A stretch of 43,594 nt of DNA from Kagunavirus PDP21P8, in the sequence record OZ035783.1. One strand, 5' to 3'. The position numbers were made by a program, and so were the translations under genes. A model generated the notes under the pieces. That model was not told the origin of the DNA and ran no database searches. It worked only from the letters and a program-made list of their open reading frames with translations. Below, one piece after another: positions 3,105-41,003 of the stretch; position 1 is the first letter of the stretch; each line of letters opens with the position of its first letter.

Positions 3105-3136
3105 TGAATAGTACCCTATTATATTGGTGTCTGCAA
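3105..3136 (-). promoter_or_regulatory. early-type promoter with AATAG-N4-CTATT operator
   Basis: minus-strand reading TTGCAG-17 nt-TACTAT; inverted repeat GAATAG-tacc-CTATT overlaps -10; 23 bp identical to site at 14310-14332. Confidence 0.5.
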
Positions 3137-4809: not shown

Positions 4810-5004
4810 GAGCTTGTGAAGTATGAACAAGCGACCGCGGCGCGGGCAGGTAACGGAGCGGGACGTAAGTCCTGAGTGTAGTTACGCTGACGCGTTCGGA
4901 AGGGCCATACTCTATTGCTTGTGTAAAAAGTAACTGGTTTACTGAGATTACGCCGTTTCTATGTTTAAATGATAAGGACTAGCGCCCCGCTTTATGGCGG
5001 GGCT
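4810..5004 (+). ncRNA. candidate short transcript (ncRNA or mRNA of a 36-aa peptide)
   Basis: ~200 nt between putative promoter 4775-4803 and terminator 4982-5010; only ORF is 36 codons (4823-4933) with a weak RBS. Confidence 0.2.
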
Positions 5005-14309: not shown

Positions 14310-14341
14310 TGAATAGTACCCTATTATATTGGGGTGTGCAA
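14310..14341 (-). promoter_or_regulatory. early-type promoter with AATAG-N4-CTATT operator
   Basis: minus-strand reading TTGCAC-17 nt-TACTAT, nearly identical to promoter at 36243-36274; ends ~26 nt upstream of the ATG at 14284. Confidence 0.5.
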
Positions 14342-30226: not shown

Positions 30227-30255
30227 AATATAATAGCTAACTATTCAGGTGTCAA
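30227..30255 (-). promoter_or_regulatory. sigma70-like promoter with operator in spacer
   Basis: minus-strand TTGACA-17 nt-TATATT; spacer contains TGAATAG-ttag-CTATTAT. Confidence 0.5.
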
Positions 30256-32764: not shown

Positions 32765-32793
32765 ACTATAATAGCGAACTATTCACTTGTCAA
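32765..32793 (-). promoter_or_regulatory. sigma70-like promoter with operator in spacer
   Basis: minus-strand TTGACA-17 nt-TATAGT; spacer contains AATAG-cgaa-CTATT; forward face carries TATAAT toward the XRE gene. Confidence 0.45.
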
Positions 32794-32813: not shown

Positions 32814-32830
32814 AATATGGTACTATTCAC
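32814..32830 (+). promoter_or_regulatory. second operator-like site upstream of XRE gene
   Basis: AATATGGTACTATTCAC, degenerate copy of the AATAG-N4-CTATT element, ~30 nt upstream of ATG 32858. Confidence 0.35.
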
Positions 32831-32857: not shown

Positions 32858-33073
32858 ATGCAACCATCCGAACTAGGCATCCGTGTAGAACAACGCCGTA
32901 AAGAACTAGGCATCTCCCAGCGCCGTCTTGCGGTCCTGGCCGGCGTTTCCCAGGGCGCGATTAACCAGCTTGCGCTCGGGGTAACTCAGGACGTCCGCCC
33001 GGCGACGCTGTTTAAACTGGCGGAAGTGCTGCAAGTAGACGCTAAGTGGCTGGCGTTCGGTGAAGGGGCTTAA
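32858..33073 (+). CDS. XRE-family HTH transcriptional regulator (Cro/CI-like)
   Basis: 71 aa; LGISQRRLAVLAGVSQGAINQL helix-turn-helix; SD AAGGAG. Confidence 0.75.
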   Translation: MQPSELGIRVEQRRKELGISQRRLAVLAGVSQGAINQLALGVTQDVRPATLFKLAEVLQVDAKWLAFGEGA

Positions 33074-35407: not shown

Positions 35408-35641
35408 TTATTCCAGGTCTTCTAAAGTAGCGGTCATTCCGCGAACTTCAGCAACAGCACTATATTTCCCGCCAACATTCTTCACGACACCGGATTTAAC
35501 CAGTACCTTCAACGACCCTTCAATAATGGCGGAACTATAGTACCTAAAATAACTACGGCGCAAGTCCATAACGCTGCACGACCCTTTTTTACGGGTTAAT
35601 GAAACGACTGCCGTAAATACGCGGGACTGGAACTCGGTCAT
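35408..35641 (-). CDS. hypothetical protein
   Basis: 77 aa; C-terminus TLEDLE similar to the EEDLE tails of primase and DUF2800 nuclease. Confidence 0.45.
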   Translation of the reverse strand: MTEFQSRVFTAVVSLTRKKGSCSVMDLRRSYFRYYSSAIIEGSLKVLVKSGVVKNVGGKYSAVAEVRGMTATLEDLE

Positions 35642-35808
35642 TTTACATTCTCCTTAATCCACGCTTCCACTTTCTCCGGGTCGAAAGTACCCGGCTGCCG
35701 GCGGCCCATAATACGGATGCAACAATCCGGGAACTTCCCACTCTTTAACCAGTTATTCAGCGTGCGACGGGTAACCCCGATACGCTCGGCTACTTCATTC
35801 TGTGTCAT
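35638..35808 (-). CDS. AlpA/excisionase-like HTH DNA-binding protein
   Basis: MTQNEVAERIGVTRRTLNNWLKSGKFP helix-turn-helix; ATG 35808 with G-rich SD; first gene of leftward early operon. Confidence 0.55.
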   Translation of the reverse strand: MTQNEVAERIGVTRRTLNNWLKSGKFPDCCIRIMGRRQPGTFDPEKVEAWIKENVK

Positions 35809-35840
35809 TCTCAAACCCCCATTATCAGTTAACGAAACCA

Positions 35841-35869
35841 AGTATACATTGCGAATAATGGGAAATCAA
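35841..35869 (-). promoter_or_regulatory. leftward early promoter
   Basis: minus-strand TTGATT-17 nt-TATACT, ~26 nt upstream of ATG 35808. Confidence 0.45.
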
Positions 35870-35884
35870 ACATAATCGCACCTA

Positions 35885-35913
35885 TTGACATTATGGAAAT
35901 CTTCGTTTAAGGT
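35885..35913 (+). promoter_or_regulatory. rightward promoter, back-to-back with leftward promoter
   Basis: TTGACA-17 nt-TAAGGT. Confidence 0.35.
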
Positions 35914-36149
35914 GCTTCTGTATCTTAGTTACTTTGATTCTTGTTCACCTTGTAAAACCCGCCGAAAACGAGCGCCCAACGCGAAGTGTTAGGCGGCAGT
36001 TTACTGAACATTCGAATTATCGTAACTTTCCTTCCTAAGTATCTCCGGTTGCCCTGGGCAAGCTCTATTCCAATCGGCGGAATATATCTTAAGTATCTGA
36101 TTTTCTTAAAGTGCCGTAGATTCGCAACCGTAAAAATGTAACGATTATT

Positions 36150-36173
36150 GGGCAGGCTTAAGGCCTGCCCTTT
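36150..36173 (+). terminator. stem-loop, weak intrinsic terminator
   Basis: GGGCAGGC-ttaag-GCCTGCCC followed by TTT. Confidence 0.35.
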
Positions 36174-36242
36174 AGTTACCAAGTAATAAGAATAAAGGCA
36201 CAGCCATACCTGAAGAATCACAACGGCAACGTAACTTTTCTC

Positions 36243-36274
36243 TTGCACACCCCAACATAATAGGATACTATTCA
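36243..36274 (+). promoter_or_regulatory. early-type promoter with AATAG-N4-CTATT operator
   Basis: TTGCAC-17 nt-TACTAT with AATAG-gata-CTATT overlapping -10; ~30 nt upstream of ATG 36306. Confidence 0.5.
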
Positions 36275-36305
36275 CTTATCGAAACGAGACAGAGGAGTGA
36301 GGGTT

Positions 36306-36500
36306 ATGTTTAAACGTGGTCAGTTGGCTAAAACGAAGCGAGGCGAACAGTACGTAATAGTGTTGCAGGACGAGAACGAGTATGACGAGGATAAGCTGGT
36401 TGACGTATGGGGTCTGGTAAGAAAGAAACCCGGGTTCGCCTTACGCGATAATCTGAAACTCATCGGCAACAATTTTAAATTCAAAGGGGATAACACGTGA
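36306..36500 (+). CDS. hypothetical early protein
   Basis: SD AGAGGAG 9 nt upstream of ATG 36306. Confidence 0.5.
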   Translation: MFKRGQLAKTKRGEQYVIVLQDENEYDEDKLVDVWGLVRKKPGFALRDNLKLIGNNFKFKGDNT

Positions 36501-37678: not shown

Positions 37679-37710
37679 TTGTACACTGGGATAGAATAGG
37701 CTACTATTCA
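37679..37710 (+). promoter_or_regulatory. early-type promoter with AATAG-N4-CTATT operator
   Basis: TTGTAC-17 nt-TACTAT with GAATAG-gcta-CTATT; 28 nt upstream of ATG 37739. Confidence 0.45.
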
Positions 37711-40718: not shown

Positions 40719-40846
40719 TGGACGAATATGAAGGCGTTTAGTAAACTTATCCCTACGCTGTTTGTGCTTGCATACTAAGCCCCGGTAAACCCGAAGCAGC
40801 AGCCCAAGCGGTGGAGACTGCGTAGGGTTCAGGGGCTTATGACCGA

Positions 40847-40876
40847 AACCCGGACCGCGAATCCGGGTTTTATTTT
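40847..40876 (+). terminator. rho-independent terminator
   Basis: AACCCGGA-loop-TCCGGGTT followed by TTTTATTTT. Confidence 0.65.
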
Positions 40877-40881
40877 ACCAA

Positions 40882-40910
40882 TTGACACCTAAGACTAATC
40901 CGACGATACT
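40882..40910 (+). promoter_or_regulatory. putative sigma70-like promoter
   Basis: TTGACA-17 nt-GATACT. Confidence 0.3.
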
Positions 40911-40916
40911 TAAATC

Positions 40917-40981
40917 ACCTCCTGTTCCATCCCTCTGCTCTCCAGTTTTATCCCGGCCCTGACCCAGCCGGGATTTTTTTT
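40917..40981 (+). ncRNA. candidate ~65-nt small RNA
   Basis: no ORF; pyrimidine-rich CACCUCCUGUUCCAUCCCUCUGCUCUCC then strong terminator hairpin. Confidence 0.2.
40950..40981 (+). terminator. rho-independent terminator
   Basis: ATCCCGGC-9 nt loop-GCCGGGAT followed by eight T. Confidence 0.7.
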
Positions 40982-41003
40982 ATCTGTTTTCCACAATGAC
41001 TAG

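Follow-up and report, generated by a model that had tools for sequence, protein, structure and literature searches.

What does the gene-free interval between the two divergent gene arms of Kagunavirus PDP21P8 encode or control? The window analysed here, the whole stretch of 43,594 nt in sequence record OZ035783.1, is a Kagunavirus genome (subfamily Guernseyvirinae), complete or nearly so. The first-pass annotation of this DNA described the interval as a divergent early control region with back-to-back promoters and a non-coding rightward transcript, and offered a regulatory RNA, a long leader and the replication origin as possible functions. The reading preferred here, held tentatively and at somewhat less than even probability, is a divergent immediate-early control region with a structured non-coding RNA that is specific to this phage group and whose likeliest role is in cis.

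The gene that bounds the interval on the left is located as follows:

35638-35808, minus strand: HTH_17 gene, start codon ATG at 35808

With this start codon, the gap without genes comprises positions 35809-36305 between the divergent arms. The left arm consists of the HTH_17 gene, a 77-aa gene and the gene of a 752-aa AAA_25 primase-helicase. The right arm begins with the gene whose ATG is at 36306 and carries small genes without assigned function, with the lysis and morphogenesis genes beyond them. Over the stretch 35600-36500, identity is 99% to Escherichia phage Henuyfy11N and 92% to K1ind1. The intergenic region is matched by 446 phage records, and at least 80% of it is covered in 298.

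The plus strand of the region contains open reading frames of 34, 35 and 51 aa, the minus strand two of 116 and 28 aa. Every one is interrupted by stops or frameshifts in close relatives, and a coding function was rejected since no reading frame is conserved. The earlier statement that the ~250 nt behind the rightward promoter hold no plus-strand ORF is thereby modified: short ORFs of 34-51 aa exist, none of them conserved. In the records inspected, the region is left blank, bears a predicted promoter only or is filled with 'hypothetical protein' calls; the PVP-SE2 record shows ~0.9 kb without genes at this place. Because all ORFs are broken in close relatives, the 'hypothetical protein' calls are probably spurious.

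The region exists in four types, A (that of the window), B, C and D. The 5' half of B, C and D is unalignable to A, and a reliable cross-type alignment of the central core of types A-D was not obtained. Three Guernseyvirinae genera were examined, of which only Kagunavirus and Jerseyvirus show the element; the divergent gap of Cornellvirus measures only 146 bp. No homologues outside phages were found in E. coli genomes or plasmids. A metagenome scan with a 16-nt anchor, which is too short, returned at least 120 loci, and among the matches listed were four real relatives. One relative, Salmonella phage SE124_3H4 (PV052269.1), is a Jerseyvirus by sequence and gene order and carries the taxonomy line Rountreeviridae; Sarlesvirinae; Minhovirus.

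Three promoters are needed to describe the locus:

35841-35869, minus strand: P_L, leftward early promoter, -35 TTGATT (35869-35864), 17-nt spacer, -10 TATACT (35846-35841)
35885-35913, plus strand: P_R1, rightward promoter, -35 TTGACA (35885-35890), 17-nt spacer, -10 TAAGGT (35908-35913)
36243-36274, plus strand: P_R2, promoter of the first rightward gene, TTGCAC (36243-36248), 17-nt spacer, TACTAT (36266-36271), overlapped by ATAGGATACTATTCA

P_L and P_R1 lie where the first-pass annotation had placed them, with 15 bp between their -35 hexamers. A promoter scan by itself performs at about chance level (4 promoter-like sites against 3.3 expected). P_L was also picked up by the consensus scan; TAAGGT matches the -10 consensus at only 3 of 6 positions and fails the -10 criterion of the scan. 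Support for the two putative promoters comes from comparison, not from consensus matches. In the comparison set of 27 distinct sequences from Kagunavirus and Jerseyvirus, which were gathered from IMG/VR via the HTH protein and the promoter pattern, with a few GenBank records and one metagenome contig, the -35 TTGACA and -10 TAAG(G/T)T of P_R1 are invariant, as are both hexamers of P_L. The spacer of P_R1 is 17 nt long in 26 of the 27, and its sequence differs at about half of the positions. The hexamers of P_L and the flanking AATGGGAAATCAA are invariant among group-A relatives, and the GenBank record of AG11 annotates a promoter at the position of P_R1. A strong rightward promoter of its own occupies this place in each of types B, C and D, with hexamers read by eye from the sequences as TTGACT-17-TAAGCT, TTGAAA-18-TATAAT and TTGACA-16-TAAAAT, respectively. 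The back-to-back, putatively sigma-70-type promoters are conserved, and the ~390 nt after P_R1 hold no conserved protein. P_L would drive the HTH_17 gene, the 77-aa gene and the AAA_25 primase-helicase gene; the HTH gene was early in an RNA-seq study of the Kagunavirus vB_Eco_K1B4 that covered annotated genes only (PMC12645636).

An operator-like motif, ATAGGnTACTATTCA, occurs seven times in the window, compared to 0.16 expected occurrences. The copies identified by motif search are:

3105-3119, minus strand: operator-motif copy
14310-14324, minus strand: operator-motif copy
30233-30247: operator-motif copy
32771-32785: operator-motif copy
32815-32829: operator-motif copy
36260-36274: operator-motif copy
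37696-37710: operator-motif copy

The motif overlaps the -10 of rightward-type TTGCAC-17-TACTAT promoters, including the one at 37679 and P_R2, which agrees with the operator-bearing promoter described earlier in front of the first rightward gene. Two leftward TTGACA promoters (32793 and 30255) contain it within their spacer, in inverted orientation. At P_L, at P_R1 and throughout 35842-36240 the motif was not found, and because they lack it, P_L and P_R1 are probably unregulated immediate-early promoters. A plus-strand ORF inside the leftward replication arm (32858-33073) matches a Cro/CI-type regulator in PHROGs and has its own operator-bearing promoter; its product is a likely reader of the operator family. 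Besides P_R2 and the promoter at 37679, promoter-like sites are present in the right arm at 40882 and 42987. The former belongs to a segment (40846-40985) with the look of an independent small-RNA gene: behind a terminator (40846-40876) comes a promoter-like TTGACA-17-GATACT (40882-40910), after which ~65 nt of C/U-rich non-coding sequence lead to a canonical terminator, CCCGGC...GCCGGG plus eight T.

Directly behind P_R1, the transcript of which is predicted to start near 35920, lies an extended hairpin, 5-7 nt downstream of the promoter:

35927-36027, plus strand: D1, extended imperfect hairpin of five helices (P1-P5) with 33 modelled pairs

The 105 nt at 35925-36029 fold as one extended hairpin with an MFE of -33.4 kcal/mol, a conserved CCUU bulge and a variable tip. 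On the plus strand the z-score is -4.45 (0 of 200 shuffles as good), compared to -2.43 on the minus strand, and the five-helix architecture is common to all variants in single-sequence folds. A covariance model was built on five Kagunavirus sequences, and all 28 matches were aligned to it. In this alignment, whose pairing figures lean towards the model because the fit allows G-U, standard pairs occupy 97.5% of the 827 pair cells; the corresponding figures are 80.2 ± 0.9 for the shuffles and 30-46% for controls with slid partners. Counted over phylogenetically related sequences, both sides change in 16 of the 33 pairs, and 165 cells carry double changes compared to 61.6 ± 5.9 in shuffles; the observed pairing or covariation score was reached by 0 of 500 shuffles. 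The closing pair of P4, for instance, is A-U, G-C or U-A among Kagunaviruses, the third pair of P4 passes through the series A-U, G-U, G-C, and P3 of Jerseyviruses has one extra nucleotide on each side. Between the genera, D1 is only 56-60% identical; identity is higher for the helicase gene, at 65%, and for the HTH gene, at 86-89%. A diverged sequence with kept pairing is just the pattern that structural constraint is expected to give.

Regarding the strand, 38 cells of D1 hold G-U and 7 hold A-C, a ratio that likewise leans towards the fitted model, and this excess points to the plus, i.e. transcribed, strand. The consensus folds computed with RNAalifold are more stable for the plus than for the minus strand in the whole set and in each genus taken by itself (-12.9 vs -7.8, -26.8 vs -20.9 and -46.4 vs -38.7 kcal/mol in the three sets). 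Watson-Crick compensation would equally keep a DNA cruciform or a hairpin in single-stranded DNA. A plus-strand RNA appears to be the simplest reading of the strand bias together with the promoter just upstream of D1, and the comparison shows that the first ~100 nt (35927-36027) have evolved as a paired structure, a hairpin of the plus strand. In the Jerseyvirus sequences L015-L023, a perfect palindrome, GTAACTTCAAGTTAC, is located at the predicted start of P_R1 (equivalent of 35918-35933). It may be an operator or an alternative RNA pairing, its second half being common to the 5' arm of P1.

Three further elements follow D1:

36028-36048, plus strand: linker UUCCUUCCUAAGUAUCUCC, C/U-rich and G-poor, predicted to be unpaired in folds
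36049-36080, plus strand: D2, short hairpin with the RNAalifold consensus UUGCC.UGGG.AA / UU.CUCA..GGCGG
36089-36118, plus strand: ordered conserved motifs UUAAGUAUCUGAU and UUUCUUAAAGUGCCGUA, present in types A-D

The linker is conserved between Kagunavirus and Jerseyvirus. D2, the loop of which carries a conserved GCUCUA(UU), has 98.2% of its cells paired. Four of its pairs vary, on one side only and always via G-U, and none changes on both sides. On the opposite strand these G-U variants are A-C mismatches, and D2 is absent from the minus-strand consensus. In a single-sequence fold the stretch is no better than its shuffles (z 0.03). The data are consistent with D2 as a predicted hairpin. 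UUAAGUAUCUGAU and UUUCUUAAAGUGCCGUA occur once each in the window. Common to all four versions of the region are UUAAGUAUCUGAU and then UUUCU..A..UGCCGUA; the ordered motifs of all four can also be listed as UAGUAUCU, UCUAUU, AAGUNACUGAU and UGCCGUA. Type D (L192, L208, L209 and L091), which has the TTGACA-16-TAAAAT promoter and different hairpins, keeps this order with UAGUAUCU, GUCUAUU, AAGCYACUGAU and UUGCCGUA. A boxA-like reading of GCUCUAUUC was rejected, the match being partial and not conserved across the region types.

The 3' part of the region is modular:

36102-36205, plus strand: X, the 3' cassette of the window; its three alternatives in relatives are Y, Z1 and Z2
36150-36177, plus strand: GC-rich hairpin GGGCAGGC-UUAAG-GCCUGCCC followed by UUUAGUU, from the terminator scan

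Relatives carry one cassette, and some Jerseyviruses carry two in series. The Y cassette is found in Jerseyviruses, Z1 forms a different long hairpin, and Z2 consists of a (CTCA)n repeat and a hairpin with a C(UUCG)G tetraloop, by its sequence an RNA-typical feature. In the five Z2 sequences L025, L028, L029, L032 and L036 (equivalent of ~36120-36210), 3 to 7 CTCA copies are followed by GGUGCC-UUCG-GGCACC. A GC-rich hairpin is present in each cassette, and a T-rich tail follows X only. Comparison of E. coli and Salmonella phages from the two genera (Jerseyvirus L018-L023) gives 88-95% identity for the X cassette and 65% for the neighbouring helicase gene; in other members X is absent or replaced. 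This near-identity suggests recent exchange or a constraint on the primary sequence, and X appears to behave as a module that is mobile or was exchanged recently. A predicted pairing of UGCCGU (36112-36117) with ACGGCA (36223-36228), invariant save for single uncompensated changes in L011 and L028, may close the cassette. When an exact 22-mer of X was searched in 185,000 representative genomes, the sole match was a Jerseyvirus contig within an unrelated assembly. This 19-kb scaffold (NZ_JACVEL010000022.1, Taishania pollutisoli assembly) is a Jerseyvirus fragment including the intergenic region and probably represents phage contamination of that assembly. The linear records of sidste (NC_073219.1, represented by L187/L188), templet and blauehaus are cut within X, between GATTCGC and AACCGTAAAA. 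Physical genome termini at the cut point of these three Jerseyvirus records were considered and dropped; the ends are contiguous and without terminal repeat, and hence uninformative. In the Y cassette of a relative, a hammerhead-like CUGAUGAG was rejected as well, having no stem II and no Rfam match.

Does the transcript end within the region? The hairpin with a T tail that had been reported at 36150-36173 is located there: the terminator scan classifies GGGCAGGC/GCCTGCCC at 36150-36170, with TTTAGTT next to it, as terminator-like. Within this hairpin, four Jerseyviruses show one compensatory change (C-G to U-A), and in L027 one A-U pair has become G-U. Because the tail, TTTAGTTACC, resembles other terminator tails of the phage, e.g. 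TTTACTTATC at 5004 after the hairpin at 4984-5003, partial termination near 36175 is plausible in the window, and 36150-36177 is probably a leaky intrinsic terminator that would give an RNA of ~255 nt. Relatives with Y or Z1 have no T-run after the hairpin, so that the RNA would run into the first gene there. In the Y-only phages SETP3, ER16 and STP03 nothing terminator-like precedes the first gene; hence the conserved form of the RNA appears to be a leader, not a discrete RNA. For the discrete transcript of ~250 nt proposed previously, this means that it is plausible in the window with its terminator-like tail and is not a conserved property, as shown by Y and Z1.

From the anatomy of the locus, a leader or attenuator in cis with a 5' stabilising or processing hairpin can tentatively be proposed. 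Host RNA polymerase would start near 35920, free of phage control because P_R1 lacks the operator of the other phage promoters. The nascent RNA would fold into D1, the C/U-rich linker, D2 and the 3' cassette, with D1, a long imperfect duplex, as the 5' stabilising or processing helix. Some polymerases would stop near 36175 and release the ~255-nt RNA, and the remaining ones would cross the regulated P_R2 into the rightward genes, producing a leader of ~385 nt. By attenuation or read-through, this leader would set the amount of unregulated early transcription that enters the rightward arm. The earlier option of a regulatory RNA or long leader agrees with the covariation, the plus-strand bias and the conservation of the promoters; we infer the attenuating role itself from the layout. 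The rightward genes have promoters of their own, which counts against the explanation as a cis-acting leader, and the near-identity of X is a feature that a simple leader fails to explain.

Known phage systems provide several partial parallels. The pR'-6S RNA-tR' unit of lambda likewise combines an unregulated promoter with a short non-coding RNA that extends to a terminator and heads a long lysis and morphogenesis array with further terminators. An operator-free promoter and a probably terminated leader are present here, as in the lambda Q unit, where a Q-family protein is encoded upstream, but no Q-like or other antiterminator was recognised among nine neighbouring proteins, most of which are without known function. 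The rightward genes, moreover, own regulated promoters, unlike in the pR' unit, and some relatives lack the terminator. The lambda 6S transcript, in contrast to the RNA described here, is not known to be under structural selection. The put RNA of HK022 is a ~70-nt pair of adjacent stem-loops that renders polymerase resistant to terminators in cis. It resembles the present element in being a structured RNA directly after an early promoter, in a phage with several intrinsic terminators to pass, and differs from the single extended hairpin of ~100 nt with further domains found here; the two are likened by position only.

RNase III cuts long imperfect duplexes in the early leaders of T7 and lambda, a site requiring an imperfect duplex RNA of at least ~20 bp, and the T7 sites are shorter. 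With the hairpins of T7 R0.3 and the lambda N leader the element shares a long imperfect duplex with internal loops in an early leader made by host polymerase, in which the structure is kept and the sequence is not. The modelled D1 has 33 conserved pairs in five stacked helices, which does not imply cleavage, and processing alone would leave the conserved motifs downstream unexplained. An RfaH ops/JUMPStart element, the consensus of which is GGCGGTAGnnTG on the non-template strand of a long leader, was rejected. The candidate (G/T)TGCCGTAGATTC matches 7 of 10 specified positions, with C at ops G4, and reads TGCCGTAAG or TGCCGAAAG in other cassettes. By analogy, the layout is likest lambda pR'-6S-tR', the put/nut leaders and the RNase III hairpins of T7, and it qualifies as a member of none of these systems.

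The possible termination near 36175 also bears on a second explanation, in which the ~255-nt RNA (35920-36175) is made immediately after infection and acts in trans on host or phage mRNAs or proteins; among the segments that might make contact are the unpaired C/U-rich linker and the conserved motifs with their fixed order. This is unlikely, although a strong unregulated promoter and a terminator-like 3' end are available in the window and the 5' hairpin would stabilise such an RNA. Conservation extends to the unpaired linker, CCUUCCUAAGUAUCU, which looks like an anti-Shine-Dalgarno sequence, and the order of the motifs is kept across four otherwise different versions of the region. A site complementary to the linker was, however, not found elsewhere in the window, a duplex-energy scan of the phage for linker targets gave no match at a translation start, and a 35-nt linker query returned nothing from E. 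coli genomes, a search that lacks the sensitivity for short pairing and counts neither way. Promoter, non-coding stretch, terminator-like hairpin and C/U-rich unpaired segment are shared with phage-encoded and Hfq-type sRNAs, from which the RNA differs by its much greater length, its short and interrupted U-tail and the lack of a target found. The long uninterrupted U tail of Hfq-dependent sRNA terminators is absent: the tail reads UUUAGUUACC, UUUAGUU being short for this class, and no U-run accompanies Y or Z1. As many relatives with Y or Z1 have no terminator after the conserved part, the discrete form is not conserved.

The replication origin, the third function suggested for the region at the outset, is considered improbable. 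It could be a site bound by an initiator, or an origin in the style of T7 or ColE1 at which the P_R1 transcript opens the duplex or primes synthesis. The region heads the replication-gene arm, contains the minimum of the cumulative GC skew and an AT-rich promoter stretch (35-36% GC), and has central motifs that are unique in the genome; YTWAGTWWCT is found three times within it. The switch in GC skew, however, coincides with the switch in transcription direction and does not discriminate. Tandem or regularly spaced iterons are absent, the repeats being limited to 9-12-nt motifs in 2-3 copies with spacings of 112 and 54 nt, and the motif count of 4 compared to 1.24 expected is reached in 6 of 100 shuffles. 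Neither the three or more regularly spaced direct repeats that an iteron-type origin has beside an AT-rich unwinding element nor co-variation with primase-helicase specificity was detected. The type B region occurs with three helicase types, whose identity to the primase-helicase of the window is 85%, 79% (over the C-terminal part only) and 30%, and helicases with 85-86% identity occur with both types A and B. As helicase type and region type are uncoupled, an origin read by that protein is unlikely, and sequence comparison disfavours one specific to the primase-helicase as initiator. A transcription-primed origin without a specific initiator is possible; the G-U excess and the plus-strand bias point to RNA, not to duplex DNA.

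The RNA might also represent a novel kind of phage regulatory RNA acting via the host machinery, either as a processive antiterminator or as an abundant early RNA that sequesters a host factor, a rather remote prospect. In the antiterminator version, put-like or protein-assisted, polymerases from P_R1 would pass the terminators into the lysis and morphogenesis genes:

36150, 37409, 2771, 4984, 7375, 11809 and 14999: terminators that would have to be passed

For either version, contact would be made at the motifs UAGUAUCU, UCUAUU, AAGUNACUGAU and UGCCGUA, with the variable hairpins as scaffolds.

Very unlikely, finally, is control at the level of DNA with the transcript as a by-product, in which GTAAC/GTTAC half-sites (five in 455 bp) and TAAGTATCT would bind the HTH_17 protein or another regulator: the Jerseyvirus palindrome at the predicted P_R1 start is in its favour, and so is the way in which HTH gene type and the left part of the region co-vary, but neighbouring sequences would be expected to co-vary in any case, no copy of the recognisable operator family lies in 35842-36240, and neither the G-U bias nor 16 compensatory pairs over a 100-nt hairpin that is 56-60% conserved would be explained.

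To place the preferred cis-acting RNA among known families, the window was compared with Rfam 15. The best matches were Hrs12 (21 bits, gathering threshold 70) and ctRNA_p42d (20 bits, threshold 50), far below threshold and covering only the terminator-like hairpin or a short stretch. The Jerseyvirus version with X and Y and the type B version gave no Rfam match at E<=1, and a description of the element was not found in the literature.

Kagunaviruses and Jerseyviruses are among the commonest phage isolates from E. coli and Salmonella and are used for biocontrol, therapy and synthetic biology. If the proposed reading is true, these phages have a conserved and probably abundant immediate-early product that annotation and engineering have missed, and if the RNA is real, the ORF calls in the region are annotation errors. 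The locus would make an RNA element readily accessible to study in a small virulent phage reliant on host RNA polymerase, and the natural swaps of the region (types A-D) and of its 3' cassettes (X, Y, Z1 and Z2) would serve as ready-made mutants.
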